Assembly (NCBI GenBank): GCA_964035545.1
Contig: OZ037766.1
Coordinates: 30,306,573-30,370,572, forward strand
Source: Bugula neritina
Taxonomy: Eukaryota > Animalia > Bryozoa
Length of the DNA stretch: 64,000 nucleotides
Direction: 5' to 3'
Within the stretch, counting starts at the first letter, position 1; every line of letters starts with the position of its first letter. A program made the translations under genes and the position numbers. Shown here in pieces: positions 24,249-64,000 of the stretch. The notes under the pieces are model-generated. The model saw only the letters and a list, made by a program, of their open reading frames with translations, did not search any database and was not told where the DNA came from.

Positions 24249-24675
24249 TTATATAGCCAGTGTATGTAAAATAAAGAAGAGAAGAAATTGGGCTATAATA
24301 TACATAGTAATAATACCAAACATGACTCCAGTAGCCAGTCCAGGGCTGGTTTTCCATGTTAGTATAGGGTAAATAATGGTCCCTGTTGTACTCCACAAGA
24401 TTACAGTTAACAAAACATAGGCTGTACCAAAGATGGCTGTATGATAAGTATGAAGGATCTGAGTGTTCACAGAGCTCATGTACTGCTCACTGATCATCAG
24501 TATAACATTGACGACGTAAAAGGTGAATTAAATGTTAAAGAAAAGAAGAAAAATGTGATTAATGGCATAAAGAGTTTACCTACATTGATACTTCACCCTA
24601 GGTGCTGACAACTCCCTAGGTGCTGACAGACTTCCTTCGTGTGAATTCATGTGTGAAAGCCTCTACACAAGCCAT
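24249..24675 (-). pseudogene. Rolling stone-like copy C, collapsed pseudogene
   Basis: Exon 1 remnant (ATG at 24675, MACVEAFTHEFTRRK then deletion/frameshift and a duplicated CCCTAGGTGCTGACA) lies ~90 bp from the 3' half of exon 4 (24249-24510), which closely matches copy B. Exons 2-3 are missing. Confidence 0.85.
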
Positions 24676-25343: not shown

Positions 25344-25535
25344 TCATTGAATCGCAAAGTCAGTTACCATTGAAAGATGGTCGGAGGGGTAGTCCATGTT
25401 AGGTAGACGTCCCTCACCTAGACAGATCTCATTTGGGATTTGTAGAACTCTGGCTACACTGAACTGATTCTATAACAAGAAGCAACAATATATTGTAATG
25501 ATACTGGCCATGGCAGCTACTGCCAATATTACTAG

Positions 25536-25578
<43 letters not shown>

Positions 25579-28500
25579 ACTACTACTACCACCAAATCAA
25601 ATGAACTATTGCTGTAAATAGGCAACTTTTAATGACAAAAACTTTACCTTTTTCTTGAGATTTTTATAGTAGATATAATCTTCAGTCTTTTTCTGCAGAG
25701 TTTCTACTCCATCCACCATCCTAGGAGAGTGAACAGATGAGAATGAGAAGTTATTTGCTAATGAATATGAAATCAGACATCATTACATAAGACAGGCTGT
25801 ACATGGTAGAAGAAAGTAAGAATAAATTATCCTATATAAATGACAATCAGTAAACTATCATAGATCTATCACAGGGAGTTTTATTCATTTATTAGGCCTT
25901 CATCAAATTCAACACATTCCATTGAAAGGGAGTTGTCATACTTAGTACTATACATGTAAAGTGCTCAACAAGGATGGAGCTGCACATCAGATGTTACGCT
26001 AATGTGGTCCATACTATTGTCTAACACAAAAAATATCATCCAAGTACTTTTCATGACTAAGTTGTAACTCTGTTATAGGTTTTTGCAACTTAATGACTTT
26101 AAAACTGAGTGGCATGTACCGAAAATGTAACCCAAGTGGAATACAAAGTTGAGACTCTAAAACCTGCTATTTTAAGCAAATAAAACTGTGATCTTATAAA
26201 TTGTAAAGCATGTAATAGCGTATAGAGAATATTATAAGGCTTTAGGTGTTTTTGGCTCTCAGTAATGCAATTTGTCTGAAGAATGAAGGTATACATTAGT
26301 ATGAACTAAAACCTACACTAACACTGAAGCAAATATTATAAGGCAGGCTAATATCAGTTAAACTATAAGAAAAGTCTAAGAGTAACAGCTGATAAATGTA
26401 AAATATCATTACAACTAGTATTTGTGATAGTTGTAATAAGTATTGGAGTCGAATTCACTTTGAGAACAGAAAGTTAACAGCTGGTCAGTTCGATTTTACA
26501 CCACTACTTGCTAACAATATAAATTGGCCGAGCTGTATTTAATATTTTAATATCATCCAGTGAGTTATTTTTGCTAATTGTGAATGCAGTGTTTCAACAA
26601 AGGAGTTATCCTACCTAATCTTGCACGTTGTGTACTCCGAATGACAACCAACTGCACTACTGTAGGAGCAGATAAACCCAGAAGATTCCAGAAGAGTGTG
26701 TACGGGTTCAGATGGGTCACTATTCAGATCTCCAGCAACCTAAGACATGGTAAACAGTGGGTGAACTGTGTCAAGAAGAGCCATGCTTTGTTATCATAAA
26801 ATTTGGGGAGAGTATAATAGAATGCTTCAGCATGGAGTCAGTAGAAGTACTCTTATCACTATAAACAAAGGATAAACAACTCTAGTTTAAATATAACAAT
26901 CTGTAACATCAAATAGTTCATAGAGGTTTATTGAATTCATGTATAACTATTCAGTATCTCAGTGTCCATAGGTGATAATGATTGTAATCAATAGAGACTA
27001 AGACATAATTAGTATAACACAAACACACACGCACACGAACACACACAGAGTTAGAACACTGTTAAACGTGTTGAAAACATAAATTCACAGTATTTACTAA
27101 TAGGTCAACTAAAGCTATTGATATTCATCAAATAGAAGTTTTAGCAATCTTGTAGAATATTTCAACTAACTACTGTGAATTAGAATTGTATACTTCATCA
27201 AACAGATTGAGACATGTTACAGCTCCCTTGTAAATAAAATAAAGACATAGTAACTCGACTACGAAGTGATACGTACTATGACAGTGTCGCATTCATCAGA
27301 GTTAGTTTCTATGTATTTGAGAATTGCCCTCCCCTGCTTTTCTCTCAGCTGACTATGGGGACTCTTAGCCTTGAGGTGAACACAGACTACGAGCAGCTTA
27401 ACGCCAGCACTTAGCTTTAGGTGAGCAGCCAGTAACACCTGACCAGTTGCCTTCCCATCAGCCTCTATCACTTCCTGTTTATAACAAGCACTGATATTGC
27501 ATAGCAACTGGTGCCAGCAGAGGACTTGAAATTGTACAGCAATTACAAGATGCCAGGTTATTAAATCCACTTGAGCAGTTGAAGTTGATCGTGCAATAAA
27601 AGCAGGTACAATAAACTTCATCCCTCTCTAAGATATGAGTTGTGATGCACAAAGCTAACGCCTACTGCAAAATATTTCCTCAGTGTTACTGAGTCACACT
27701 ATCCAATAAAACATGACAGCACCTAGCAAAAGCACCAAACAATTGCGACATTCTCAAAGCGATATTGATATTTATTCCGATATATTCACAATGCGCAGAC
27801 AATATGATTGATACTATTAGCGCATCATCATGAGGAGGTAGCACTGTAAAAAATAAGGTACAACTGCAAGCCATCTTACTCAATTTATTCAAGCATACTG
27901 TTTTCAAAATCCTCTTATCTTTGACTAACCATCAATATGCTACATCAGAACTTAAAGCCGCGGCACAACATTTTATAATAATAAACATTTTCCGCAGGAA
28001 GAATTTGTGTAAATAAATTACAAGAGTAAAAGTTAGCAGAAATTGCACAAACAGCTGTGATATTTCGTGAGTACATGCAAACATGCAGTAGCCTACTGAA
28101 ATCATAACTCACAGAATGGTGTGCAAGCAGCTGGGTAGTTGAAGGTTTGTAAAATATAGCAGATCCATCTGGTCCAATATTTCCATCAGACATCAGGCAC
28201 GGTGACGTAGGCTTCGGCACCCACAATCCTTTGTAGTCTGCAACAGTTACCGTCAGACTTGAAACTTATTACCAGCAGATGTCTATTAATTCAACAAGTT
28301 TATAATAAACATGGGTTGTTCATCAAAATTGTTGATGTTAAGTCAGCTCCATTGCTGTACTACCTGACTTTGCAAGAAGCCACAATTGCCGGGCTTTTTA
28401 TTACAATGCAGTTTTATAGTAAGAAAGTATTATTAAGTGCAGATAGATTTTCTAAAATACTGAGATATGTGGACTTAAACTTCAACTCTTCAATGCTGGT

Positions 28501-29475
28501 GTGTTTAAATCAAAGGTTTTACAAACCTGAAAGCTTCTCCTTCAACTGCTCAAACATGTCTACTTCCTGCAAACAAATGACGTCTGCTGAATAACGGGTC
28601 AACTCGGTCACAATCTCACCCAATCTTCTGTCAAACTGCAACGCTTCTGGAGGACATCTAATAAATGAGTCAGAAGACAACCCTAAAAAGGCAACTTCTA
28701 TCAATTCTAGCAAAACTTGGATCAGACCCATGAGGAAAAAAGAAGCAGTTGGGAATTTGTATCATGAAGAAATGATTTCAACTGTTTAATAAAATAAGCT
28801 TACCCTGAGCCAAAACGTTGAAAGACATGACCCTGAACGTGCACTTCTGCTGACTCGCTGCATTTGGATTCTGTATAGAATACATATTTATTAAATAGAC
28901 ACAGGAGAACATTGATATTTGGTGGTGAAGGTAACTACTGAAAATATCGTGACCCACATTGATCATGTCAATACGATGACTGCAGTTACATTGTTGATGA
29001 ATTGATGTAAACGCCATTTTTAGTTTAAAATTTTCAGGGCGACTCTATGTATAATGTGAAAAGACGGTGATTGTCATGAAAAGCCAAATAACAATGCTGC
29101 AAGTGAAATTATATGAATATAATGGCAATCGAGAAATCTGTAAGTGAAAAAATATGCAATGAACCAAAAACAATATATTATATATTATCACAAACAATTA
29201 ATTAATTTTAATTACTATTAATATTAATATCAGTAGCACACTGGTGGTGATAGCGGCGGCGGCGGCAGCAGCGGCAGCAGCAGCAGTAGTAGTAGTAGTA
29301 GCAGTAGTAATATTACTAATACTACTATTGCTACTACTGCCACTGCTACTACTACTGCTACTGCTACTGCTACTGCTACTGCTACTGCTACTGCTACTGC
29401 TACTGCTACTGTGCTACTACTACTAGTGTGCTATTACTAATACTTTTAGTAATAGCACACTAGTAGTAATAGCAC

Positions 29476-29525
<50 letters not shown>

Positions 29526-29699
29526 CAGTAGCAGTAGCAGTAGCAGTAGCAGTAATAATAATCATAATCATAATGCGATGATATTGATTGTCAGTATCAA
29601 TACCAATACGCCATATGAATACTGATACGGCAATACGGATACCTCACTATTCTTTTTATCACTTGGCTTAGGAGTGAAACTGCGATGGTTAGAAATCAT
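25344..29699 (-). CDS. NOCT: Nocturnin (CCR4/EEP-family NADP(H) phosphatase), ~308 aa; exons 29699-29643, 28870-28804, 28682-28527, 28237-28113, 27474-27277, 26739-26615, 25720-25648, 25469-25344
   Basis: Eight GT-AG exons, 927 nt in frame. Motifs RVMSFNVLAQGLS, DVICLQEVD, PKPTSPC, GPDGSAIFY, VHLKAK, GDLN, YTTCKIR, DYIYY, YPSDH. The first exon is the least certain. Confidence 0.9.
25530..25592. repeat. (CTA)n/(CTG)n microsatellite in last nocturnin intron
   Basis: TACTACTACTACTGCTGCTGCT...ACTACTAC run; a degenerate counterpart lies near 17990-18040 in the pseudogene. Confidence 0.9.
29250..29575. repeat. Compound microsatellite with inverted (fold-back) arrangement in nocturnin intron 1
   Basis: (GCA)n(GTA)n, then (CTACTG)n, a 35-bp inverted repeat at 29406-29480, then (GTA)n(GTAGCA)n. 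Confidence 0.9.
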
Positions 29700-35564: not shown

Positions 35565-38500
35565 TCAATCACTTTCAGCTGGGATGCCGTAAGGTGGAAT
35601 CTAAAATAGAATACAACTTAATTTGGCAGACTGAAAACTGGAAACTCAATTGCAAATGAAAGGTTAAAATGTAAGGGAACAGTAACGAGCAGGTGTAAAA
35701 AGAGCAACCAATTTAGCGGCGTATAAGTACAGTACATCCTGTCTAGACTCTAGCACAAAGGTCAAGTCAAAGTATTTAATAAAATAATAATGTAAGACTA
35801 TTCAAAACAAGAGTTTTAAAAACAAATACTATTCACATTAAAGGTTTCTAAATTCAAATTGTTCATCTAATATTTAGCAGGGTATAACTTTGGATTCAAC
35901 CATATGTATGTGGGTCATTAGCTTTTACTCTTTATTTTCACCAAAGATCACAAGAATATCAGCTATTTATCAACAGGTTGTATTAATAAATGTTATAAGC
36001 TTGAAACTCAATTTAATGCTGTACAATAAAATATCTTACATACAAATTAATTCAGAGAATAGAGATGCGCGATTTACCATTCTTAAGGCCTGGAATTTCA
36101 ATATTGGGACTATTTTAATTGATGAAATATACTTTTTATAACCCAAACTCTCATTGTCAACATAAATACAGACATGTTGATGTTGAGCAACATGCCAACA
36201 AAGAGGATACTTTGCACAAACCTCTGTGTGTGATGCTATGATCTCATCAAATATTTGGAATTTCTCTGTGGAATCAGTAGGCTGGTCAGAATGAGTTTCA
36301 TTTTTCCATGACTCTGTGAGCGACTCTAGATACTTATAGAGGTCGTCTTGCTGAGTAAGCAGCTTGGAATCATCCCCAGCGTCACTGAAATGTGCAGTGA
36401 AGAAGATTTACACCAGATGTGAAACATATTGCGGCTCTGCTGAACCTAGTCAGCAGATTGTTTCGAGCAATAATGATTTTTTAGACAGGAATTCTAAGAG
36501 AAAAACACTTACTAATTCAAAAAAGCAGAAAAACCTGGTCATAGAGTAAAGCTAACTGCAGTGTAAAATATTACTGGTTAAAGAAAAAATTGTATGAACA
36601 ACAAAACAGAACAGATATAAAAAGCTATGTCAGTGAGTTTCATTGCTTGTGTACTTTAAATTACATCATGTAAAGACAATATCTAGGTATGTTAGTTACT
36701 AACCTCTGAGCATTCTTGTAAGAACAATAGTACTTGTCCAAGCTTCTGTAGAGCCGCTCAAACTTGTGATTATCAAGTTCAGGATGACTCTTATCCGACC
36801 CATTCTTTAAGGAAAGCCCAAGTTGTTGCATAGCCTTAAGAATGTATTTAACAGCTTCACCAGACTTGCCACAGTCGGATAGAAACTTGGCGTAGTACCT
36901 AACAAATAATAAACCCTGTAGATGTCTGTTTGAGAGGATCGGGCAGAAACAAACTTGCTCACAACACTAACTGGCATCTGTTAGAGAAAATGACTTCCAA
37001 ACTAACATAATAGGAAAAATTATGTCTTATTTATTCTTCCATTATTCTACGCTTCTCCCATGTACCTAAGGAGCTACACTCTCCATAGTTGAATACAAAC
37101 AATACAATAAAGAAATGGTACTACTATTAAAGCGCAAAACACAATCTTTTAAAAAAATATGATAACAATAAATATCTTTTTTTACAAGTATAGTATAATA
37201 TACAGAGAATAGTATAGTATACAGGGTATAGTATAATATACAAAGAACAGTATAGTATACAGGGTATTGTAGTACAGTATACAGAGAATAGTAAAGTATA
37301 CAGGGTATTATAGTATAATATACAGAGAATGGTATAGTATACAGGGTATAGTATACAGGGTATAGTATACAGGGTATAGTATACAGAGAATAGTATAGTA
37401 TACAGGGTATAAACAATAGCATCAGTGACAACTTTTATTAATTGAAATTAAGCGTGGAGATCTTTAAAAAATATGGCAAAAACACACTAACCAGTATAAA
37501 TCGATGAAAAGAGGCCACCATTGTTATACCACACTTTTTAAGAACACACAGGAAACTAGTTTTTAGCTAACAATATTAAGTGACAAAAAATAGCCTAAAG
37601 ACAAAATCTCATCTAGCTGAAGAACCCATTATCTGTTAGGATAGGATACTCGAATACCTGTAACAATAACAGAGGGCGCTATTTTTGAACACTTGCTTCT
37701 TGGCTAGTTCTTCCACTTGTGTCAGCAACTGCTCTCCGCTGGCAAAATGCTGCTCCTGATTAGCTGGTTCTAGCTGATACAGTTTACCTGTAATAAGATA
37801 ATCAAGTCTCATCCATATATTATTCATGGCAGTCGTAGAATTGTCATTTCAGCTTGTGGATTATTAGTTTCTATGTATACTGTATGCAGTAATTTATGCC
37901 ACAACAGCTTTAGGACTAGTGGCCAACGCTAAGTTGGATGAGCATAGTCTATGAATTTTACAGCTCTGCAAGCAAGCAGCATATCCTACATGCAACATCA
38001 ACGGAAAATGTATATTGAATAAATAACTAATTTGAAAAAATAATGATGATTAAAAAATTAAAAGCAATTACAATCAAAGCAATATTGAATACTGAAAAAA
38101 GATGCCCGTTAAATATATTCTGCCATCAAATAATTTGTTATTAAAAGTCGTACCATAGCAGTTGATTTTCCATTCAGCACAAATCATCCTGTGGTAGTCA
38201 TCATATTTCAGGTCTGATCTCATCAGCCCTGCTTCATACGCATATCTTTTAACATCATCCTCACCAACATTGGACAATTCTAAAAGAAGTATTCTACTTT
38301 AATCACTGTCACCACATATTCATATACCAACTCATCATATGACATGATAAAGTTGATACTAATACAACCGGTAGATTGACTGGTCAGAATTCCGAGACAC
38401 AAAAAGTGTTGCAAACAGATGTTACCATCCAGTTGGTCTTTAATAGAGTGGAGTTTATCAGAAGAATCTTCTTGATCAATCGCCATGGCCAACCTTTCTC

Positions 38501-41500: not shown

Positions 41501-43011
41501 AAATTACAAAAATTTCTTTTTAAAAAAATGTTTCTAGTATAACAATAACAGACTACCACCATACCATATCAATAGCAGAGTACCATCACACCATACCAAG
41601 TATGAACACATTCGGAAGCATTTGTACTATACCATCATTTAAATCTCCCATTTAAATAAATACAACCCAATTTCAACAAATGCAACATTAGGCACACATG
41701 TGTAACCTAGTAGACTTAGGAATCAAACCTTGAATGAAAAAAAAACAGAAATTATTGACTAAAAATTTAAAGAGTTTATTTAGAGAAAAGGTGTTTAGAA
41801 AGCTTGATGGACCAACCATAGACTAGCTAGCTAACTTGTCTATACTTGGAAACAAACTTTAAATTAATACACAACACAAATATAATGAAGAAAAATAATT
41901 CAGATCGTTTATAGTTGAAAGAATTCACCTGCTCGGACTCAAAACTTTTCAAAAATATTCGCAAAGCTAGAGCCATTCCACCAAGTTTATCCACAAGCTT
42001 TTCTAAAGAATCATCATCCAAACGTGTGAACTTGAAAAGTATCTTGGCTTCCTCTAAAGTGAAGGGAGACACTTGAATAAAACCATCTTTACCAATGTGC
42101 TGATATACAGCTGGTCTCGGGACACTCTTCATGCTAGTAACAAACATTGTCCAAGTAACCAGATCAGGGACTTTAGTAGCAGAAGTTTGTTGAGAAGATT
42201 TCATCTCCCTGGCAATGTGATCCAACATGATTAGCAACTCTTCAAGTTTTTCAACATCATCAAAGATAAAGATTTTGTGATGGTCAGGGTAATGGGAATT
42301 TAAAGTTTCGAAAAAGGTAGTGATAATATGCCAAGTTTTTGGCCTATCATCTGAGACTGCTCCAACAGGTATGTCTAGGTCTGTAAAAAGCTGGTGAAGG
42401 TCGTTGTAGAGTGCCTCAATACTGGTGCAATCAAATTTACGATAAAGCCTTTTGCCACTTTCTTTCAAATTATCCCAAACCTTTGCAGATTTATGTCCAG
42501 CAATATATGACTTTCCCCGACCAGGAGCACCTATAAAAATATCTTGGTATCAATAATTAATAATGAAAAACATTACAAAGCAAACAAATACGTGATATGC
42601 TGAAAAACAAAATCATTCGTTTTGCCTTATATGATACTCTTGGTACTTGTTGTTGAAAAAAATAATAATATTTTTGTAGCCATAGTTCATTATAAACAAC
42701 GCCACAAAGCAGACAATAGCACAAATGGATAGCAAAACATGCTACAGAACAAATTTGGAAAAATAAATATCATTTAAAGAAATATTTATCTTCAATCACT
42801 CACCCAGCTATATTTATACTATGATAACAATGGTGTCATCATTGAACAAAAAAGCGCTCTATCTATTCACATTTTGAAAATACTGATCAAATAATTAAGC
42901 AACTATACCAGTTAGAACTATGATGGAGGACCCTGGAACTTCCAAAACTTTATCAACATCTTTGGCAGCTTCTGTTTCAACAAAATCATGGTTGTATATT
43001 GGTGTATTCAT
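35565..43011 (-). CDS. STAND P-loop NTPase (NB-ARC-like) with alpha-helical/TPR-like C-terminus, ~871 aa; exons 43011-42909, 42530-41929, 41479-41204, 41069-40909, 40460-40322, 40200-40040, 39905-39702, 39140-39007, 38611-38426, 38279-38154, 37787-37658, 36898-36704, 36384-36222, 35600-35565
   Basis: Fourteen GT-AG exons give 2616 nt with no internal stop. Walker A IIVLTGAPGRGKS, Walker B KIFIFDDVE, sensor-1 MFVTS, SPFTLEEAKILF, GxP-position LGGMALAL, MHD-position LSLHKLV, TPR-like YAKFLSDCGKSGEAVKYILKAM. Confidence 0.82.
37188..37410. repeat. Intronic minisatellite (TATAGTATACAGGG / TACAGAGAATAG units)
   Basis: Visible tandem reiteration of 14-19 bp units; explains the spurious ORF 37066-37431. 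Confidence 0.9.
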
Positions 43012-43593: not shown

Positions 43594-44004
43594 TGTTGTA
43601 GATTCGCGCAAATATACCATGTCCTTTTTTTTATTTAGAGTTATATTCCCTCGCACTCGTTTTCTTTTTTTTATTATTATTATATGTAAACCGAGACTCG
43701 TGCGAAGTCGGAGGCCGAAGACACGATATCGGAGGGGCCTGCCCGAGATCGGGCAGGTCTTCCTCCGATGTCGGTCGGCGGAACTCCGACGTTCGCACGA
43801 GTTTCGGTCTCTCATTAAGTGGCGGGAATTCCCCCCTATATAAGTGCGAAGTTTTTCCAAAGCAATTCATTCTTGTACTGGAGCTCGAAGCAGTCAGAAG
43901 TAATAAATACTCATAGATTCATTTTAATCAAGACTCTTTATTTCTATCACAATAACTGGCATGCAGACTACTAGTCTATTCTTATAATCCACAAAATCAC
44001 AACA
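43594..44004 (+). repeat. 5' LTR of element 1
   Basis: TG...CA ends; TATATAA 43837-43843, Inr-like TCATTC 43867-43872, AATAAA 43902-43907; direct repeat of 51048-51458. Confidence 0.97.
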
Positions 44005-44005
44005 T

Positions 44006-44023
44006 TGGTGGCAGCGGTGGGAT
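44006..44023 (+). other. Primer binding site complementary to tRNA-Leu 3' end
   Basis: TGGTGGCAGCGGTGGGAT is the reverse complement of ATCCCACCGCTGCCA-CCA, the 3' end of metazoan tRNA-Leu(AAG/TAG). Confidence 0.9.
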
Positions 44024-44076
44024 TAGAATAGACTAGTACGACAAGCAGCCATTAGAGAGAAAGAAAGAACAGCACA

Positions 44077-45000
44077 ATGGGGGACGAAGAAGAAGAAGTC
44101 ATGGTAGAAGGAGAAGAAGAAGGAGAAGGGGACCGTCTCACCATGGAGACGCTCATCACGGCTCTCCGAGAGGTCGGAAAGACCGCACAGGCAGCACCTG
44201 GAGACAGGTATCGCCTGAGGCCTCCGATTTTCGGAGGCGAGGGAGATATCGAACAATTCATCAGAGAGTTTGAGGAGGTAGCCACCCTCGCCGAATGGCC
44301 GGCACCGGTGCGCCTCCTCCACCTCCGTACCTGTCTGACAGGTCAGGCAAAGAGTTATGCTCTGGGACCCAATACAGCGCACATCTTTCAGGCCCTCAGG
44401 TCGCGTTTCGGGCTAACCGCCCGCGCCGCCAGGGACAGATTGCGCACCATACGCCGAGACCGGAAGACCTCACTCCAAGACCATGCAAACGCTATTGAGG
44501 CACTAGTACCAGTAGCCCATAGCGACGACACACCGGCAGCACAAAGAGGTGCTGTGTATGAAGCCTTCTTCCACACAATCAATAACCCTGGACTACAGCG
44601 TTATTACTTGGCAGCCAAGGTCACCACTATAGAGGAAGCCTTAGCCCTGGGCAAGGCTTACTACCAAGTAGAGGGACCTCAGTGTGCGGATTTCACCGCT
44701 TGTCAGATTGAGGAACGACCCGAAGTCGCTAAGCCGGATCAGCCAAACCCACAGGCCGTGGCGGCTGCTACTACTTCGTCACCTGACCAGATGACCATGC
44801 TGATGGACATGGTAAAGGGATTGCAGGCAGAGATGAAACAGATGCAGAGAGAACAGGCTGATAAACGAAACCCCCGACCCTGGGGTGAACCAGCCGGTAC
44901 TACCCACCTCACCTGCTGGGGGTGTGGTGCCAGGGGACATGTACGAAGGCAATGCCCTCACGAAAGAAGGATGCCTTTTAACACCCGGGGCTCGCGGTAA
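44077..45000 (+). CDS. gag: Gag (307 aa) with CCHC zinc knuckle
   Basis: Capsid-like PPIFGG...FIREFE...W...L.G.A; knuckle CWGCGARGHVRRQC. Confidence 0.93.
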   Translation: MGDEEEEVMVEGEEEGEGDRLTMETLITALREVGKTAQAAPGDRYRLRPPIFGGEGDIEQFIREFEEVATLAEWPAPVRLLHLRTCLTGQAKSYALGPNTAHIFQALRSRFGLTARAARDRLRTIRRDRKTSLQDHANAIEALVPVAHSDDTPAAQRGAVYEAFFHTINNPGLQRYYLAAKVTTIEEALALGKAYYQVEGPQCADFTACQIEERPEVAKPDQPNPQAVAAATTSSPDQMTMLMDMVKGLQAEMKQMQREQADKRNPRPWGEPAGTTHLTCWGCGARGHVRRQCPHERRMPFNTRGSR

Positions 45001-48000
45001 CCTCCGCCAACCGTGAGCCACCAGCCAACCCCATCCAGGAAGAAATGACCCAAGGAGCCTTTTCCAGGCCAGCCGAGGCTGCGTGGAGACGTCGGAGACC
45101 CCAAGGTCTGCCCGACTCTCCAACCCAGCCACCTACGACCCGGATGGGACTCCTAGATGCAGGATGGCAGGCACCTCGGAGATCTCGGAGACCGCAAGGT
45201 TTACCCGATCCTCCGGCCTGGCCACTCCAAAACCGGTTCGCGGGGTTGCCCGAAGAGGCTGTGGAGGAAGATTCAGCTTACTCGCGAGAGTATCCAAAGC
45301 TACCCTCCCAGCCTCAGAAAACCCCCGTTGTCTGTAGGACGAAGAGGAGGCCCGCTGTAAGGACCCAAGAGGTGTCCCCACCAGAGACTGACCGACCCAG
45401 GAGCACCCAGCCGTATGGAAGCAGCTACTTCCTGCCCGGAAAGATTTCGGGCAAAGCTGCCACCTTCCTGCTGGACACAGGGTGCACTACAAACCTGCTA
45501 AGTCGGCGTCTCTTCGACACCCTTGGCGCCCGAGAGCGGGCGAGCCTCGAGCCATACGAAGGAGCACACGGTACGTTGGCGGACGGATCGTGTATCCCCT
45601 TCTACGGCATTATCACACTACCTGGACGAGTCCGTGATCAAGTAATTCACGAGACGTTCATTGTCAGCCACCTGAAGGAAGACGCCATTCTGGGAATGCC
45701 CTTTCTGGAGAAACACCAGTGTCACATGGGTTTCCAGAAGTCGGCGGTGGTGATGGCTGGGAAGGAACTTGCATGTGTGGACAAGTTTGGTAGGCCCTTG
45801 GTGGGCGGAGTGCAGGTAGTGCAGGACTGCACGATTCCAGGGAGATCCCAGGCTACTCTCCGATGCAGGGTCAACTGCAAGGAGATCGCCGCACTGGGGG
45901 TGGTGGAGGGAACGCACGGAGCAATTCGACTGGCAAACAGCCTAAATCGGCTGGACTGTCGAAGGGAGCTCCTCGTGCAATGCATCAACCCCTTTGCGGA
46001 ATCGGTCCGATTATCGGCTGGTGCACTGGTGGGGAAGTACCACTCCATCCATGAGGCGGATGTGGGTCCGGCACTGGAAACAGTGAGCGACACCCAGGGA
46101 AACCCCCCTCACAACCACCGAGAAGCAGTCCCGGAGCATGTGGCTGGCTTGTACAGTGGAGCGTGTGGAAACTGTACGAGTAGTACCGAACGCCAAACAC
46201 TGGCTCAACTACTCGCGGAGTACAGTGATGTCTTCAGTCGTGGTGATGAAGATATGGGGCTGACTAAGGTTATCTCCCACGAGATACCCCTGGCAGCTGG
46301 CACCACTCCCATCAGGCAGCCAACCCGACGTCTGGGCCCGGAGAAGGAGAAGGAGGTGAGCTGGCAGGTGCAAGATCTTCTCGACCGGGATCTGATTGAG
46401 CCTGCCCACGGTGCGTGGAGCTCTCCAGTAGTCCTGGTCAAGAAGAAGGATGGTAGCTGGAGGTTCTGTGTGGACTACCGCAGACTCAACAGCGTTACCA
46501 TCCAGGACGCTTACCCCCTCCCGCGGATAGATGAGTCTCTGGATGCCCTCGCGGGTAGTAAGTACTTCAGTACTCTGGACCTGCTTAGCGGGTACTGGCA
46601 AGTACCCCTCAGTCCTGATGCTCAGGACAAAGCAGCATTCATTACCCGCGATGGGCTCTGGAAGTGGAAAGTACTGCCGTTTGGACTTACGTCCGCCCCG
46701 GCAACTTTCCAAAGACTCATGGAGCAGGTCCTCAGTGGGTTACACTGGAAGACCCTCCTAATCTATCTGGATGACGTCATTGTCATCTCCCCAGACTTTA
46801 CGACTCATGTCAGTCGTCTGCGGGAGGTCTTTGACCGACTCCGGGCTGCTGGACTGAAGTTGAAGCCCTCCAAGTGTGCACTCCTACAGCAAGAAGTCAC
46901 GTACCTGGGCCATGTGGTTGGCCGTGACGGGGTCGCTACCGACCCGGAGAAGGTACAGGCTGTGAAGGAGTGGGCCGTCCCCCGGGACCTCTCTGAATTG
47001 CGGGCATTCCTGGGCCTGGTAGGGTACTACAGGCAGTACGTACCCGGGTTTGCAGGGGTGGCTCAGCCTTTGAATCGGCTAACCGCCAAGGGAGTCCGGT
47101 GGCAGTGGACACAGGAGGAGCAGCAGGCATTCGACCACCTCAAACAACGGCTAATGGAGGCGCCGATTCTGGCGTTTCCTGATCCAGCCAAAGAGTACAT
47201 CCTGGACACCGACGCCAGCGACCACAGTGTGGGAGCTGTTCTGTCTCAAGTCCAGGGTGGAAGTGAGGTGGTCGTGGCTTACTACAGCAAGACTCTCGCG
47301 GCTGCCGAGAAAAACTACTGCACCACTAGGAAGGAACTCCTAGCAGTAGTCAAGGCGGTCAAGCACTTTCGGCCATATCTGTATGGAAGAACGTTCCGGT
47401 TGCGAACAGACCATGCATCACTGATATGGTTGTGTAAACGTGCAGAGCCCTCGAGTCAGGTGGCCCGTTGGCTAGAGATTCTTGCTGAGTTTTCCTACCG
47501 GATAGAGCACCGTGCCGGCAAGAAACACGGGAACGCTGATGGCATGAGTCGCCGACCGGTAGAGAACTGCAAGCAATGCCTACACATCGAGAGGCGTGAT
47601 GGGGGACCTGCCCGCCTTGACGTCGAGGCACAGTTGGGAGACGGCAACGTCTATCGTTGGGAGCACGGCCATCTTCGGCCTGAAACCCACTCAGACGACG
47701 TCCAGGCACTCCGTGCTAACCCCACACTGTACCAGAACGTCAAGGAGCTGTGTCGACTGCAAGAAACACTCCCTGGATCAGTAGCTGACATCTTCCGAGC
47801 CAAGAAAGAAGGCAGACGACCCTCGAAGGAACAGCAACGGCAGGGAGACGCTGAGTTTCAGTTCTTCTGCCGCCGCTGGAATTCTCTCCAGATTCGTTTA
47901 GACGGCCTCCTGACGATGACACTCGCAGCAGACAACCGGCAACAAGAAAGGGATCGCGTCATATGCCCACGCGCTCTCCGTCGGGAAATCATCTGGGACA

Positions 48001-50171
48001 CCCACAAACAGGCCCATGCGGGAGCCAGTCGGGTCATCAGATTCCTGCAGATGCGATGGTATTGGCCCGGGATGACCAGGGATGTGCGACTGAGAATTCG
48101 GCACTGTGAAGTCTGTCAGGCCAGCAAACACGGACGCCCCACCGAAACCACGGGTCGGCGCCGGCTATACGCCGGCCGGCCTTGGCAGGTCGTGGCGGTA
48201 GATCTCGTGGGACCCATGCCCACGACCGAAAGGGGAAACTCTTGGATCTTGGTCCTTACAGACCACTTCACACGATGGGCGGATGCCCTGGCTATCCCCG
48301 ACGCATCGGCACCCACAGTAGCCCGAGTCCTGGACCAGCATGTGTTCTGTTACTTCGGCCTACCGGAACAGATACACACCGACCAGGGCGCTCAATTCCA
48401 ATCACAATTAATGAAAGACCTCTGCCAAGTATGGGGGGTGAACCAGAGCCGGACCACCCCGTATCACCCCCAAGGAAATGGGGTAGTTGAAAGAAACAAC
48501 CGGATGTTGGGTGATGCTCTCCGGAGCCTCTTGTTGGGAAGGAGTCAAGAGGAGTGGGACGTCATGCTACCACAGATTATGCGAGCCTATCGAAGCACCC
48601 CCCACTCCAGCACACAGGAAACACCGAATCTGATGATGTTGGGCCGAGAAACCAGGGTACCAGAACACCTCGCGTACCACATTCCTAACCCAGAATTCCC
48701 AGTACATGAGTACGTGGGAAAGTTAGTCGAAACCATGAAGAAAGCTCATGACGCACTGAGAGAGAAACAGTGGCTGGTACGAACAGAAGATTCCGAGGAG
48801 CCGCCTCTGTATCGCGAAGGGGACTGGGTGTGGATGGTCAGCTACCGCAGGCGGCGCGGACAATCGGCTAAATTACAGCCTAAGTTCGTCGGGCCCTACT
48901 GCGTGGTAGAGGTTTTACCAAACCATACATATCGTGTGGAACGCTCGGGACAGATATCTGTTCAGAACGAGCAGCGGTTGAAACCTTACCACGGAAGCCC
49001 GGAAGCCGCGGGACAGGCACCACCACTGCTGGAACCAGCACGACAGCCCATCTCCCGTGGGAGGAGGAATCAACCCCGAGAGTGGGAAATAATTGTTCGT
49101 GATCCCAGGGAAGTCCAAGACACCTCCGACGCCCCCCCACGGAGCCTGCCACCCGCTCTACACACCCATGATTTACCCAGCCAGACCAACCAACCAGAGA
49201 CACCCACCTCGCTAACACCGGCCCCAGAGGACCTCCCCTTGCCGCCGACGCCTGTCCCAGACGATATACCGCCTCCACCAGACACCCCACATCAACCAAG
49301 CAACCCTACCAACCTCACTCTGGGGAGAGGAAAAAGAGACAAGAAACCGCCGGGTTATTTGGCTGATTATCACGTGGGGTGCATGACTGAACTTCACCCT
49401 TCGAATCATTACACCCAACTGGACTCGAATTCAGACTGTCACCTCAGATCAACCATAAACACACTGACTACCCAAGAAAATCAAGACCGAAATTCGGAGG
49501 CGGCCCGACACCCGGAGTTGTCTAATTTAATTGACCACTTGACCAGTCACGTGATCGGCGATCGCACGAGTTTTAAAATTAAAAATCAAAACTCGGCCAT
49601 TTGCACTTCAACTTTGAACGATACAGCACGCTATTTTAAACTCAATTTGAAAAATTTGACAAATATGGAGCCTGTGACAAGTAAACAAACCCAGCTCGCT
49701 ACGATATCAGGTATTTCTAGCTTACTAAAACCTCCCTTCACGGAGTGTAGTAGCTCTCTAGACTCATTTTCACCCGACTATCAGTGGGAAAATGAGCTGT
49801 TCTTTGATCACAAAGGTCAGGACGATTTAGAAGAGTCCCCAGTCCACGACTACCTGCTAGACCAGGAGGTTGGACGGGTGTCTCTTCGGCTATCACCTGA
49901 CCTACCCATGTGTCAAAGAGTGCCTTACAAGGAGATGCCGAAATTCGGCACTCTTACGGCCAGGTCACCAAGCTCTCTGTTTTCTATTGCAGAAGCCATG
50001 GAATGTGAGGAGGTCGGGTCGAGTCGTATCGACTCCCCGGCCACCACAGTTCCCGACCCGGCTGTTACCAGCCCGCCCGAGGTTCCAGCACCAGAGCCTA
50101 CGCTCACCACCCAGCCGGAAGCAGGTACCCCCCCTCCAGCCGACGGCTCCCCGTCCGGTGAGGCCCCTTAG
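44982..50171 (+). CDS. pol: Pol polyprotein (protease, RT, RNase H, integrase) in -1 frame to gag, with long C-terminal extension
   Basis: Frame open from 44982 (first ATG 45045). LLDTGC protease, YLDD RT, DTDAS RNase H, HHCC (HKQAH...CEVC), DLVG / DQGAQF / VERNNR DDE integrase, PKFVGPY GPY/F motif. Confidence 0.96.
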   Translation, partial: HPGLAVTSANREPPANPIQEEMTQGAFSRPAEAAWRRRRPQGLPDSPTQPPTTRMGLLDAGWQAPRRSRRPQGLPDPPAWPLQNRFAGLPEEAVEEDSAYSREYPKLPSQPQKTPVVCRTKRRPAVRTQEVSPPETDRPRSTQPYGSSYFLPGKISGKAATFLLDTGCTTNLLSRRLFDTLGARERASLEPYEGAHGTLADGSCIPFYGIITLPGRVRDQVIHETFIVSHLKEDAILGMPFLEKHQCHMGFQKSAVVMAGKELACVDKFGRPLVGGVQVVQDCTIPGRSQATLRCRVNCKEIAALGVVEGTHGAIRLANSLNRLDCRRELLVQCINPFAESVRLSAGALVGKYHSIHEADVGPALETVSDTQGNPPHNHREAVPEHVAGLYSGACGNCTSSTERQTLAQLLAEYSDVFSRGDEDMGLTKVISHEIPLAAGTTPIRQPTRRLGPEKEKEVSWQVQDLLDRDLIEPAHGAWSSPVVLVKKKDGSWRFCVDYRRLNSVTIQDAYPLPRIDESLDALAGSKYFSTLDLLSGYWQVPLSPDAQDKAAFITRDGLWKWKVLPFGLTSAPATFQRLMEQVLSGLHWKTLLIYLDDVIVISPDFTTHVSRLREVFDRLRAAGLKLKPSKCALLQQEVTYLGHVVGRDGVATDPEKVQAVKEWAVPRDLSELRAFLGLVGYYRQYVPGFAGVAQPLNRLTAKGVRWQWTQEEQQAFDHLKQRLMEAPILAFPDPAKEYILDTDASDHSVGAVLSQVQGGSEVVVAYYSKTLAAAEKNYCTTRKELLAVVKAVKHFRPYLYGRTFRLRTDHASLIWLCKRAEPSSQVARWLEILAEFSYRIEHRAGKKHGNADGMSRRPVENCKQCLHIERRDGGPARLDVEAQLGDGNVYRWEHGHLRPETHSDDVQALRANPTLYQNVKELCRLQETLPGSVADIFRAKKEGRRPSKEQQRQGDAEFQFFCRRWNSLQIRLDGLLTMTLAADNRQQERDRVICPRALRREIIWDTHKQAHAGASRVIRFLQMRWYWPGMTRDVRLRIRHCEVCQASKHGRPTETTGRRRLYAGRPWQVVAVDLVGPMPTTERGNSWILVLTDHFTRWADALAIPDASAPTVARVLDQHVFCYFGLPEQIHTDQGAQFQSQLMKDLCQVWGVNQSRTTPYHPQGNGVVERNNRMLGDALRSLLLGRSQEEWDVMLPQIMRAYRSTPHSSTQETPNLMMLGRETRVPEHLAYHIPNPEFPVHEYVGKLVETMKKAHDALREKQWLVRTEDSEEPPLYREGDWVWMVSYRRRRGQSAKLQPKFVGPYCVVEVLPNHTYRVERSGQISVQNEQRLKPYHGSPEAAGQAPPLLEPARQPISRGRRNQPREWEIIVRDPREVQDTSDAPPRSLPPALHTHDLPSQTNQPETPTSLTPAPEDLPLPPTPVPDDIPPPPDTPHQPSNPTNLTLGRGKRDKKPPGYLADYHVGCMTELHPSNHYTQLDSNSDCHLRSTINTLTTQENQDRNSEAARHPELSNLIDHLTSHVIGDRTSFKIKNQNSAICTSTLNDTARYFKLNLKNLTNMEPVTSKQTQLATISGISSLLKPPFTECSSSLDSFSPDYQWENELFFDHKGQDDLEESPVHDYLLDQEVGRVSLRLSPDLPMCQRVPYKEMPKFGTLTARSPSSLFSIAEAMECEEVGSSRIDSPATTVPDPAVTSPPEVPAPEPTLTTQPEAGTPPPADGSPSGEAP

Positions 50172-50879
50172 TTGAAGGACGAGCCTCCTTACCAGCAGCT
50201 AGCTCTCCCCCACATTTTGACGGAGCGCCTCCACTGGACCACGGCAGAGACCCGTGCTAGGATAGAGCAGGACTGTGGAGAGGCCGGCAACTGCAAGTGC
50301 CGCCAGTGTAGTAAAAGGTTTACTACTACCAGGCGACTGCGGGTGCACGTGCCCCAACATTATGCCAACGTCTTCTGCCCGTGTGGCGAATTCTCTTTTC
50401 AAAGAGATTACGTGCTGAGGCACCAGCGCATAGCCCGCTGCCACACGGGTCAGGTGTTTGTTGTCGACGAGGTGACATTTCCCGAATTCCGGGACTTGAT
50501 TCTCCCTCACATCGGTGACCCCCATAAACGGGCGACACTCGCCCAGGGATTTCCGGCATGCCGCCCAACACAGGATGCTACTGACGACGAGGCACCACCC
50601 GCGGCCCAGCCAGCTGTCACCCGACCTCTCCGGGTTGTGTTGGCTAGGGTCGACGGGAATGGAGAGAGAGCCCAGCAGGTAGCCGGCCACAAGAGACGGA
50701 GGCGCCAGGACCCTAGGATCCCGGGTTCCACCCCTACCCCAGCAGTGCCAGCACGATGCCCCCATGAGACTGAGGTTCTCCGGCTGCGCCGGCAGGTACG
50801 CCGGCTGGAGGATGACCTCCACGCTGTTCGCCGCCGCCTGGACAGGCTCGAGGGCCGCAGAGGTGACCGTCGCAACTGA
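49998..50879 (+). CDS. ORF3: tandem zinc-finger, Arg-rich, coiled-coil accessory protein (in pol frame; interrupted by TAG at 50169-50171)
   Basis: Acceptor-like CTCTCTGTTTTCTATTGCAG (AG 49991-49992), then GCCATGG. Contains C-x2-C-x12-H-x3-H, C-x-C-x12-H-x5-CH, HKRRRR and C-terminal heptads. Homolog at 63297-64000. Confidence 0.75.
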
Positions 50880-51035
50880 AAGGCTACTCTACCACTACTC
50901 ATGACAATCAGCCTGCTCAAACCTGTACTACCTTTATATTTTCTTTATTTTTCTTTGTAAACTGTGCACCCCTAGATATTGTTTTTTTTATATTGTATAT
51001 TTGTTTTTTTTTGTATCGGAAAGAGATACTTTCCA

Positions 51036-51047
51036 ATAGGGGGTGTG
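51036..51047 (+). other. Polypurine tract of element 1
   Basis: AATAGGGGGTGTG immediately 5' of the 3' LTR. Confidence 0.75.
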
Positions 51048-51458
51048 TGTTGTAGATTCGCGCAAATATACCATGTCCTTTTTTTTATTTAGAGTTATAT
51101 TCCCTCGCACTCGTTTTCTTTTTTTTATTATTATTATATGTAAACCGAGACTCGTGCGAAGTCGGAGGCCGAAGACACGATATCAGAGGGGCCTGCCCGA
51201 GATCGGGCAGGTCTTCCTCCGATGTCGGTCGGCGGAACTCCGACGTTCGCACGAGTTTCGGTCTCTCATTAAGTGGCGGGAATTCCCCCCTATATAAGTG
51301 CGAAGTTTTTCCAAAGCAATTCATTCTTGTACTGGAGCTCGAAGCAGTCAGAAGTAATAAATACTCATAGATTCATTTTAATCAAGACTCTTTATTTCTA
51401 TCACAATAACTGGCATGCAGACTACTAGTCTATTCTTATAATCCACAAAATCACAACA
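51048..51458 (+). repeat. 3' LTR of element 1
   Basis: 411 bp; the only difference I found from the 5' LTR is G43731 vs A51185. Confidence 0.97.
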
Positions 51459-52465
51459 GTATTACTAAATAAAATAAAAAAATCAAAATAATTACCACCC
51501 ATAATTATACACACTGTCCACACTGTAAATGTCTAAAACGAATAGCTAATGGGCCTGAGGAACTTCTATAACCTTTACCTTGAATGTTTGCAAGGGCAGG
51601 TGTTCCATGTCTTTTAAGGCACTATTAGTATTGCTATTACTATTAGTATTACAAATATATCAATTACAATATGAATATTATTAATTATTAAGATTATCAC
51701 CATCACATGTTGATGTTTATGTATTAAATTTAATATTACTATTATGAGTATTAGTATTGGTATTACTATTAGTATTACTATTAGTAATTAAAATTACAAT
51801 TTGAATTTACCTTAAACTTACTCTTACTCTGACAATAACTCTTAGTCTTAGTCATGTTTACAATCATAATGATAATGATAATGTTTGCCGCTTAGACCTA
51901 TAAATATAATACTAGTCTAATACTAATACTAATAGTAATACTAATAGACATAGTAATAGTAATATTTATACTTAATCTTAATCTTAATCTTATACTTATA
52001 GTTATACTTATAGTTATAGTAATGCTAATTTTATAAATTATAGCTGAACTCATCAGTCAATGTCATCAACTTCAAGTGCTCATGATGAAGAAGATGGTTA
52101 TGATCAGCATCATTTATGATTATACATTATGATTATGATTATCGTCATCACCATTGAGTTTGACCATCGTCATGAAGCTCAGACTGACAAAATGAAAATG
52201 AAAATGAACACGATTAAACATTTAGCAATAAATATTTAAACAAGTTTAACTTGCACCCAGCGGTTGCTGCACTGTCTGTTGTAGCTATCAGCATTACTAT
52301 TAGCATTGTACTGATAATAAACAGTAAATTATCATTTTCATTTTATGATTATAATTTATGCGACAGCCTGCAGGAGGCTAAGCACATAACGAAACTGACA
52401 GCCGGAACCGGGGCTCCGATGTCCGTCGCATGTACACGACTCGGAAAATGAAGACATGGAAGCTT

Positions 52466-56240: not shown

Positions 56241-57659
56241 GTTTATGTTAAAGCATATATTTTGATATTGATGTTCTAATTACAATTTTCATTGTGCATT
56301 TAATTTTGTATAAGCCTTTTCTATCCCAATTGTCAAACTTAGCTATTTATGTTGCTAGTATAACACAGCAAGATTTCAAAGGGTCGCTAGGACAATCTTT
56401 GTTTTGGTTCATTCTTGTAATATATTTTGCTGTTGTGATTTGCTTGCTTTGTCATTATCATTAAATAGATATATTATATATATTATACAACACGCACATA
56501 CATTATAATTTCAATTCTTCTGGGGGAGCAAATCCCAAATTTGTCTCACAGAATATTAGCCTGAGTGCTAACCATTACACAATATACATAAAACCGCATA
56601 TACACATTACTACATGATTTCCAAACCATAATATTCGTCGAGCAAAGATAACTCTTATCTTTAAATAATTAACTGCAAAATTATATAGAAATTTTGAAAC
56701 TAAAAGCTAATGAATAACTTCGCTTCATTGTAACTGACCAGTCTGACTAAATTAGAAGTTCAATTTTAATCGATTCAAAATTAATAATTTAGCTACAAAT
56801 TACAAATTTTACCCAAAATTTATAAAATTTAATTTATTTTAAATTTTTGTTCGACAACTTGAATCAATAAAAGCCTGATCCCTTATTAAAGCAGGGAACC
56901 TTTCAATTAGCACTCATCACATGGCTGTGATTTAAGTCAGTGGTAAATACTTGATACTTAAGTTTCTTAAATATATTTAAATACATTTGTTACTAATATA
57001 ATTTGCAATGCAGCTGACTGTTATCCAGAGTATTATTAACTAGACATTATATCAACAGCATGATTCAAAATTAACAAAAAGGAATCCACACTTATAGTGT
57101 GATGTAATGACAGACTCGTAAACAATAAACAGATGGAATCCATGACATAATACCAAACTGCTAGTCATGTTGGCTATCACCCTAAAAAGTAGCAGCATAC
57201 AATAAAACATGAGCCATATTGTGGTGGCCAGTGAAGTGTACTCGTGTGCACGTGCTACCCAGCCAATAAGGTGGGATCACGTAAGAGCCCCCCCCCCCCC
57301 CGGCGAAGCAGGGGAACGGAAGAGGCGAGTCAGTTAGTTAGAGTGTAACGAAGTAAACCCATGTGATTACGAGTTGTATTTTGTACTTGATACTGGATGT
57401 ATCTTTCTTGTAAATAAACTATATTGGTATGCTTTATCTGGCGGAGTATTGCTTAGGAGTAAATAGATCTTCTTAGTGCATAACAACAGAACCCACTCAC
57501 ATTATAATTGCAAAATTATAACAGTGGTGGCAGCGGTGGGATTTCTGACTTGTGGCAATGCAAAGATCTGAACAGCGCTAACATCATGCACCATAGCAGA
57601 AGGACCAGCTCAACACATAGAAGGTAAGCTAGACATTGCTGTAGCCCCTGAGGCTCCCG

Positions 57660-62700: not shown

Positions 62701-63296
62701 CGGCAATTATGAAAGTCCAGCAGGGTACCGTACGGAGAGACTGGCAACAAAACGTGGGAGTTGGGAACACCAGGGAAAAACCAACTTTTGCCCAGGCGGA
62801 ACAACAAATAAGATTCATCCGCAGGAAGCACAGTGCCGTAGTCACGCTTCACAAACACATTGCCCAGCCTTTTCTTATGCTGATGCAGTCAAGAGCAGGC
62901 GTGCCAGTAGTCATAAATAATAACCATTCAATAAGCATTCCATATGTCTTACTATACCGGATCGAAGGGTGAATTAATTATACTTTCTGGTACGGAAACT
63001 AGACTGCATCAATCAGCCCTAACTCTACTAGTTAAGCGAGCTGGAGATTAACTGATGAAACCTAGTGGTGAAAACACATAGTGACTTAGAGATTCCAGAA
63101 ATCTACCATTGCAGTGTGTGTTCTCAATCAACTATTCATTAGTCTAAATCTCACGAGTGTCTAACTGAATAGAGCACCTGTCTGGCTGTTTCATGCCGGC
63201 GGTACTTCAGTGTATAATTACTAACACTGTTGAACTCTTTCAGGGAATACTCGAGTGACCACCTTCTGGTCACAAGACCAGTTGGCTCCTCTACCA

Positions 63297-64000
63297 ATGG
63301 AAGAAGAACCGGAAACTGAGCAGGGACTGCCTGCGATACTCGGCCGATGACATCGGTGGGTGTCGCCGGCGACGGAGAGAAAGATAAAGGAAGCCTGGGG
63401 ACCTAGGGGACAATGCCAGATATGTCAAGTCTGTCAGGAGGAGCGTCCCTCACACCGCTCCCTACGACTACACGTAGATGCCCACTTCCTGCTGCATTTC
63501 TGCTTTTGTGGATTCCACGACGTGTATCCCTATCCCGTAATTGTACATAAGATGAATTGCTTTGCCGGGGAAGGCCACGTAGTAGATGAAGATACCTTCC
63601 CACAATATCTAAACACCATCCGGCCGGTGATAAAGAAAGCTCTGACGCTCGCTGCTATCACGTCTGGGTTTCAGACCATATTAACATTTGCCCGCCGGCA
63701 GTCCCCGATGGTCACGACCCCGTCTATTCCCGCTCTCGTCTCTAAAGACGCCACCATAGCTTACGAGGTGGTAGTGTCCGTTACCTGAGAGACGATTCCA
63801 ACCTCACCTGAACCCAGCCGGCTAGCTACCATAGAAGAGCGGCTCCTACGGCTACAAGCAGATTTTACACAATTAGCATCAGATCTGCTCAGTACGACCA
63901 CAGGCTTATATCAGCTTAAGGACTCCGTGGGATGGATAAAACGAAGACTCCGTGCCCGCCAAGCTAGACATCGATCCCAGTCTCAATACCTGGATTCCCT
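63297..64000 (+). pseudogene. Element 2 ORF3 (zinc finger + coiled coil), with in-frame stops at 63348-63350 and 63786-63788
   Basis: Acceptor-like CTCTTTCAG (AG 63242-63243), ATG 63297. CQVC-x12-HVDAH, CFC-x12-HKMNC and VVDEDTFP match element 1 ORF3; heptad region RLATIEERLLRLQADFTQLASDL follows in frame. Confidence 0.8.

Follow-up and report, generated by a model that had tools for sequence, protein, structure and literature searches.

Retrotransposons with long terminal repeats (LTRs) are believed to rely on transcription factors of the host, and element-encoded regulators are considered a mark of complex retroviruses. The literature we searched holds one tested regulator of an animal Gypsy element, the export factor CERV of the Caenorhabditis elegans Ty3/Gypsy element Cer1, which the available part of its report describes as a nuclear accessory protein that the element encodes and expresses through splicing, and that has a Cys finger as well as a zipper and a basic signal (PMC10309623). 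According to the sections at hand of two further reports, bdelloid rotifer LTR elements carry lineage-specific non-env genes in the env slot (PMC5408684), and plant and fungal Gypsy elements such as Grande, RIRE2 and Boty have a conserved extra open reading frame (ORF) that lies between pol and their 3' LTR (PMC7264820).

Here we describe a third ORF (ORF3) in the corresponding place of two Gypsy elements of the bryozoan Bugula neritina. Both lie in a stretch of 64,000 nucleotides (nt), hereafter the window (GenBank assembly GCA_964035545.1, contig OZ037766.1, forward-strand positions 30,306,573 to 30,370,572), and all coordinates below are those of the window. An earlier note on this DNA had proposed that ORF3 is a conserved non-env gene for a nuclear regulator with zinc fingers, an Arg-rich patch and a coiled coil, expressed from a spliced mRNA. 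Our comparisons indicate that ORF3 is a real gene under purifying selection. A conserved, selected, non-env third ORF with the layout of a nuclear regulator stands; the proposed gene model proved incomplete. We hold, with about even confidence, that ORF3 encodes a DNA-binding regulator that would be produced in a long, acidic form and a short, spliced form.

Results

A conserved third gene in two divergent elements

Element 1 (43594-51458) is a young Ty3/Gypsy element, whose LTRs of 411 nt each differ at a single base and which also has a target duplication, a primer site, gag, and a pol gene in the order protease, reverse transcriptase (RT), RNase H and integrase (PR-RT-RH-IN). As claimed, its ORF3 occupies the env slot, in a frame between integrase and the 3' LTR (51048-51458). 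Element 2 starts at about 57100, has a broken gag-pol and extends past the end of the window. The two are 65-68% identical in pol and 36% in gag, and their LTRs are indeed unrelated, save for the LTR end and primer site. The same ORF lies in the same place in element 2, with a homologous core (33% identity over 107 amino acids (aa), E 2e-15). The elements have an 18-nt primer-binding site in common despite their unrelated LTRs. Motif look-ups in published supplements gave no match to a named Gypsy clade (Mag, CsRN1, Gmr1, MolGy, PolGy or the errantivirus groups).

Neutral evolution of ORF3, named in the earlier note as one of the outcomes that would refute its proposal, does not agree with the codon-position identities between the two elements. 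Across 104 codons of the core, 46, 58 and 26% of first, second and third positions are identical, and 1 of 16 four-fold sites is the same. Compared with the related protein P0027, the core is 84% identical, the coil 62%, the acidic N-terminal part 59%, the linkers 45-51% and the post-pol spacer 33%.

The family is large. A single-sequence search returned 22 proteins from 1852 candidates. With a profile of 16, the representatives numbered 329 at E ≤ 1e-3, of which 150 reached ≤ 1e-10 and 45 reached ≤ 1e-30; the best 150 of the 329 were inspected, and the weaker ones may include ordinary C2H2 proteins. One Trp, four Cys and two His are invariant across 27 diverse rows. In a tree of 94 cores, computed from only 117 columns, elements 1 and 2 fall within one 39-row branch (99/99). 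Nearly every member derives from an animal-containing assembly. Where the species is given, among the 30 members looked up, it is one of two bryozoans, Watersipora subatra (XP_067940964.1, with two cores, and XP_067944745.1) or B. neritina (KAF6040922.1 and KAF6040923.1, consecutive accession numbers on a contig of equal length). Bryozoan rows occupy two places in the core tree, and grouping them together is not rejected on these 117 columns (p-AU 0.13). Scans with the ORF3 alignment for DNA of related elements confirmed none of 179 metagenome, 76 viral and 44 genome pattern matches, and integrase scans for related elements gave nothing, or three distant integrases (26-28% identity) without ORF3.

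Several annotated bryozoan genes (P0030/P0172, P0101, P0175 and P0176) contain one or two copies of the finger domain, and P0101, P0175 and P0176 have an N-terminal motif in common that was not seen in element-borne proteins. Two core copies are also found in P0050 and P0125. It is possible, from these sequences, that the bryozoan genes reflect domestication of the domain or its source in the host.

That ORF3 is a fragment of a zinc-finger gene of the host, captured and hitch-hiking without use to the element, is very improbable and largely refuted. Such a passenger would agree with the broken state of both copies in the window and with annotated bryozoan genes that hold the same module, but synonymous sites are saturated while the ligands are conserved, and conservation follows the domains. 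Moreover, divergent representatives number in the hundreds, acceptor and start codons are conserved, and the stop of element 1 is missing from the three covering contigs of run X1.

A longer reading frame and two broken copies

Both previously proposed start codons (ATG 49998 and ATG 63297) are where they were said to be. By starting at ATG 49998, however, the earlier note overlooked the acidic N-terminal third of the protein, the continuity with pol, and the broken state of both copies. The coding region begins 333 nt (111 codons) upstream of that ATG, at ATG 49665 (AATATGG), for a total of 404 codons, and the additional 111 codons are open in relatives and can be aligned there. All seven proteins that run through the first position have Met there, as do 13 of the 14 that span the second.

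In element 1, a stop at 50169-50171 separates ATG 49998 from the fingers, and the following 235 codons (50172-50879) contain no Met. This stop is absent from all three covering contigs of run X1, and nine of nine aligned relatives are open at the position; the contigs are the better witness, because database proteins cannot contain stops. Programmed read-through was considered and rejected, since the relatives have no stop at 50169. With one stop in element 1 and two in element 2, neither copy is able to make the protein described here. The frameshifted tail of P0173 continues into sequence resembling the stretch before the 3' LTR of element 1, and P0173 thus represents a third element with the gene in the same place.

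The N-terminal part carries two motifs, DxLLD and [VA]PYK, that are common to groups whose cores are only about 37-39% alike. Of 27 listed differences in this part, 13 are synonymous where 30% would be expected (p 0.03); in the spacer above it the count is 2 of 13. Asp plus Glu outnumber Lys plus Arg in 35 of 38 long N-terminal parts. A window of 39 residues with net charge of at most -7 and at least seven Trp, Phe, Tyr or Leu, thresholds of our own modelled on rules for acidic activation domains, is found in 24 of 31 long N-terminal parts versus 1 of 37 long C-terminal parts. A reading of the PYK motif as TATA was dropped because element 1 has no TATAA there.

Layout of the protein

The motifs CRQC..HVPQH, CPC-x12-H, VVDEVTFP and HKRRRR (50688-50705) and the heptad C-terminus are at the positions first reported for them. 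The core is predicted with high confidence (pLDDT 94.5, pTM 0.84) to be a compact domain with two tandem fingers, in the order helix, CxxC-x12-H-x3-H finger, five-residue linker, CxC-x12-H finger, strand and two helices. Finger 1 is of the classical CxxC-x12-H-x3-H type in both elements. Equal ligand spacing in the two elements, another early claim, holds with one exception, the final ligand of finger 2, where element 1 has H-x5-C and element 2 has H-x3-C; a further Cys (62) or His (37) follows in 99 of 100 members. This is not a canonical array with TGEKP-type linkers, given the five-residue linker and the CxC second finger.

None of the ORF3 stretches in the window reaches any Pfam family cut-off, the zf-C2H2_4 match (E 0.048) included, and P0050 alone does so for zf-C2H2_4 among 56 relatives. 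Profile matches to C2H2 structures extend down to E 3.6e-8. In the VIA structure ranking of 50 rows, ranks 1 to 16 all belong to tandem C2H2 proteins whose structures were solved on DNA (root-mean-square deviation, rmsd, 2.2-4.1 Å over 50-57 residues). The long model retrieved generic coiled coils only, and Atlas searches retrieved generic C2H2 or unnamed clusters. The heptad score is passed by 30 of 54 long tails versus 0.6 in shuffles. As the earlier note had it, the protein has no signal peptide or transmembrane segment such as an env product would have: the highest 19-residue Kyte-Doolittle mean in element 1 is 0.66, and a value of 1.8 is reached by 3 of 105 relatives, in one case within a frameshifted tail.

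A different role is conceivable, in which fingers and coil would bind host chromatin or small-RNA proteins rather than a DNA sequence, so that ORF3 would act as an anti-silencing or host-manipulating adaptor. We regard this as improbable. It is in keeping with an ORF3 that keeps pace with gag in its divergence (33% and 36% identity between the two elements) beside a pol that is 65-68% identical, and with an atypical finger 2 that is packed into a larger domain; however, fingers that track rapidly changing LTRs would be expected to change fast as well, and the adaptor has no known partner. Non-env ORF3s of rotifers have been interpreted as anti-host tools in the portion of that report available (PMC5408684).

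Probable splice sites and a candidate internal promoter

The acceptors at 49992 and 63243 have the same phase, as proposed, and both are phase 1. A phase-1 YAG/G site needs a residue with an NYA codon before the junction and one with a G-starting codon after it, so that conservation at the DNA level can be read from related proteins. Compatibility with YAG/G was found in 15 of 15 rows, consisting of element 1 and 14 element-1-type proteins, which are related rather than independent, despite six and four residue types on the two sides. Among 104 variable pairs of adjacent columns, each column with three or more residue types, the acceptor, which had been named before the test, is the only one at 90% or above, the mean being 18%. 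P0029, P0173 and the group of P0018 were excluded because their alignment at the acceptor is unclear. A perfect TACTAAC lies 19 nt upstream of the acceptor AG in element 2. The acceptor is probably real, to judge from this pattern of conservation. It sits inside the longer coding region and is followed by the second conserved ATG.

Where the donor lies is less constrained. Both elements have local phase-1 candidates 275-282 nt upstream of the acceptor, each behind an ATG, and element 2 also has a strong donor-like site near its gag start (57623/57624), whose counterpart in element 1 reads GA, not GT. Because phase 1 is a one-in-three match, all of these donors are candidates only. In the available part of its description, the third ORF of Tor uses both a gag-proximal donor with a non-canonical GA and internal promoters (PMC4402516). 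Of the env-like spliced route envisaged at the outset, the acceptor upstream of the fingers is upheld, and splicing from the 5' leader becomes one of three possible routes.

A second route might begin at an internal promoter, the suggested role of the DNA block at 49498-49617. Contigs of runs X2 and X3 align on this block with empty flanks. It contains GTCACGTGAT (49546-49555), which we take to be an E-box, and GGCCATTT (49595-49602), which is presumably YY1-like.

An element with a splice acceptor must export intron-containing RNA, and ORF3 could be a Rev- or CERV-like factor, made from a spliced RNA, that exports the unspliced genomic RNA from the nucleus. We find this quite unlikely. CERV, whose features include a KRKK signal and a Cys finger next to a leucine zipper, performs this task for Cer1, as far as the accessible text of that study goes (PMC10309623), and a long hairpin in the 3' LTR of element 1 (z -11.9) offers a candidate response element, but the element 2 LTR has no such structure (z -0.14). 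In addition, a conserved acidic-aromatic N-terminus and tandem-finger geometry fit DNA-binding regulators better, and neither exons in common with gag nor the H, M and G domains of CERV were seen in ORF3. The hairpin was dropped as a lineage-wide response element because, of the two LTRs scanned, that of element 2 lacks it.

Continuity with pol

In element 1, ORF3 is in the frame of pol, and this frame is open from 44982 to 50168. Over 49332-49997 it has no stops versus 14 and 14 in the other two frames, and 1 of 20000 simulated sequences was open; over 49332-49664, where the integrase-tail motif accounts for the first 13 codons, the counts are 0 versus 9 and 7 and the simulated value is 0.0096. 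The integrase-tail motif, by a pattern composed after the sequences had been seen, occurs in a core-bearing ORF in 6 of 155 proteins (P0027, P0174, P0061, P0133, P0138 and P0153), all of them partial and distributed over both main branches of the tree. Few proteins could show it, because no more than 11 of 117 extend 250 residues upstream. Given the open pol frame and these ORFs, the module is probably also made as a tail of Pol in some lineages.

Chromodomains of chromoviruses tether integrase, and the ORF3 module could work mainly as a C-terminal Pol extension, with fingers that anchor the integrase complex at particular DNA or chromatin. We rate this as unlikely but worth keeping in view; it is compatible with a DNA-binding regulator. 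The open frame of element 1, a copy not chosen for this trait, and the six proteins from both branches speak for it, whereas the two ATGs and the acceptor, all conserved and located within the frame, suggest separate expression. In element 2, ORF3 is apart from pol, which ends at stop 62920, and all three frames are closed in the following 323 nt, although this is a decayed copy. A search for longer proteins (435-2000 aa), itself a weak one, yielded four matches, none with both integrase domain and core, and the motif pattern was written with the sequences already in view.

Other features of the window

The features are listed in Table 1. The LTR of element 1 contains a long imperfect palindrome upstream of a TATA-like site (43690-43808 and 51144-51262; z -11.9 as RNA), and the element is inserted in an AGTATT-rich tract. 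Elsewhere the window holds CTA/GTA/GCA microsatellite arrays and a 14-19-nt minisatellite (25508-25598, 29242-29575, 37170-37416 and 51722-51973), and a tandem host gene family with three related exons at 8046-8519 (-), 13256-13723 (-) and about 24204-24503, the first copy of which has rolling stone (Rost) and FAR-17a/AIG1 matches above the Pfam cut-offs. A frame at 41827-42549 (-) with a GAPGRGKS P-loop and weak AAA_22/nSTAND3 matches is possibly an exon of a STAND-type NTPase.

Table 1. Coordinates of elements 1 and 2 and of their ORF3 regions; a slash within a motif or between two positions marks the splice junction.
Feature	Position	Strand	Remarks
5' LTR, element 1	43594-44004	+	411 nt; TG..CA; target duplication GTAT (4 bp)
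Primer-binding site, element 1	44006-44023	+	Identical to element 2 57525-57542
gag, element 1	44077-45000	+	CCHC knuckle; Pfam E 0.0026, below cut-off
pol, element 1	44982-49370	+	Protease, RT, RNase H, integrase, SH3-like region, Pro-rich tail
RxxR..PPxYLxDY motif	49326-49370	+	End of Pro-rich tail of element 1 pol
Spacer after pol, element 1	49371-49664	+	Open in pol/ORF3 frame; poor protein conservation
Candidate internal promoter	49498-49617	+	DNA block kept in divergent copies
ORF3 N-terminal acidic-aromatic part	49665-49997	+	From first conserved ATG; DxLLD and [VA]PYK motifs
Candidate local phase-1 donor, element 1	49708-49717	+	CAG/GTATTT (49710/49711), 282 nt upstream of acceptor
Pyrimidine tract and CAG acceptor, element 1	49968-49992	+	Phase 1
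Second conserved ATG and Pro-rich linker	49998-50168	+	GCCATGG
In-frame stop TAG	50169-50171	+	Private to the element 1 copy as far as seen
Conserved core	50220-50558	+	113 aa; helix, C2H2 finger, CxC-x12-H-x5-C finger, strand, two helices
Basic patch HKRRRR	50688-50705	+	Possible nuclear localisation signal
Predicted long helix	50760-50879	+	Heptad pattern (coiled coil); stop 50877-50879
3' LTR, element 1	51048-51458	+	Long imperfect hairpin at 51144-51262
Strong donor-like site, element 2	57620-57629	+	AAG/GTAAGC (57623/57624); near gag start; phase 1 in gag frame
ATG and candidate local phase-1 donor, element 2	62944-62975	+	ATG 62944; AGG/GTGAAT (62968/62969), 275 nt upstream of acceptor
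Branch-point match, pyrimidine tract and acceptor, element 2	63219-63243	+	TACTAAC; CAG
ORF3, element 2	63244-64000	+	Decayed, cut at window end; ATG 63297; TGA 63348-63350, 63786-63788

Discussion

The order acidic region, fingers, basic patch and coil is known from dimeric DNA-binding activators, and the acidic-aromatic region, tandem fingers, basic patch and coiled coil of ORF3 would give it the same layout. Since there are two conserved starts, and the acceptor would lead to removal of just the acidic part, a long activator accompanied by a short form makes the simplest working model. In this model, an internal promoter within 49498-49617 would give rise to an RNA that starts above ATG 49665 and encodes the 404-residue form with its acidic part. 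Splicing into 49993, from a local donor or one at the gag start, would remove the acidic part and leave a shorter form that keeps fingers and coil. The protein would enter the nucleus, pair through its coil and bind DNA through its fingers, where the long form might activate the LTR or the internal promoter and the short form might compete with it or dampen its effect. In element-1-type lineages, the module would also be translated as the tail of the Pol polyprotein, at Pol's low level.

Several observations weigh against an element-encoded DNA-binding regulator. DNA binding and promoter activation are suggested by the layout, and no binding site common to the LTR and the internal block came to light. 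C2H2 fingers bind RNA and protein too, and the fold matches are weak: Z is at most 4.3, and Foldseek against PDB and the viral library gave nothing at E ≤ 0.001. Just 28 of 61 long tails contain the basic patch, a count without a control. We set the acidic window rule ourselves, and acidic disordered regions are common. The excess of synonymous changes in the acidic part was counted in 40 listed of 126 differences. Element 2 lacks, in the corresponding region, the putative E-box and the GGCCATTT motif seen in element 1. Finally, an extension of Pol accounts no less well for the open pol frame of element 1 and six relatives.

A more far-reaching proposal is that a widespread lineage of animal Gypsy elements carries, in the env slot, a sequence-specific transcription factor of its own that is read in three ways, as a long activator from an internal promoter, as a spliced brake without the acidic part and as a Pol tail that steers integrase to the DNA sites bound by the factor, with the module also kept as genes by bryozoan hosts. 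We consider this combination doubtful as a whole. If ORF3 is indeed a regulator, then 'complex' regulation arose in animal retrotransposons that lack env, and the gene would provide a direct handle on how an element activates itself or evades silencing. Its core would be a new compact two-finger domain that hosts, too, may have adopted, and the in-frame link to pol makes this domain a candidate for integration targeting.

Accessory third ORFs are already known, while the zinc-finger family, its layout and its three possible expression routes appear undescribed. We found no description of a zinc-finger third ORF in animal Gypsy elements in the full-text literature searched, a scope that excludes Repbase, Dfam, GyDB and subscription journals. 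In the parts available, the main texts of a mollusc and a polychaete survey lack the words ORF and zinc (PMC6238403, PMC8556966, the latter with three supplementary files outside this scope), a tubeworm survey treats additional ORFs only in general terms (PMC8220671), and a metazoan errantivirus survey has no mention of zinc finger, ORF3 or C2H2 (PMC13524379).

Among better known proteins, the core of ORF3 can be compared with the tandem C2H2 domains of Kaiso/ZBTB33, SALL4, ZBTB20 and BCL11A, whose two adjacent fingers superpose at 2.2-2.9 Å over about 50 residues. It differs from them by a second finger of the form CxC-x12-H-x(3-12)-C/H, by a short linker that is not of the TGEKP type, and by extra helices and a strand. 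With respect to regulation, Tas of foamy viruses is an element-encoded DNA-binding activator expressed from an internal promoter, and E2/E8^E2 of papillomaviruses includes a short form, made by splicing, that retains DNA binding and pairing without the activation part. Both serve here as working analogies only, and no relationship of sequence or fold is claimed.

Comparison with other third genes is limited to what the accessible parts of the sources contain. Unlike the env proteins of errantiviruses and Tor, ORF3 has no signal peptide, transmembrane segment or likeness to fusion proteins (PMC13524379, PMC4402516). The rotifer ORF3s are GDSL esterases, DEDDy exonucleases, and coiled-coil or transmembrane proteins, among which a zinc-finger type was not seen (PMC5408684), and the extra ORFs of plant and fungal elements are mostly antisense or env-like, with tandem C2H2 fingers not described (PMC7264820). 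CERV has exons in common with gag, contains H, M and G domains as well as a possible C4 finger, and is not stated to have homologues beyond nematodes (PMC10309623). ORF3, compared with it by layout and place, instead follows pol and combines tandem C2H2-type fingers with an acidic N-terminus.

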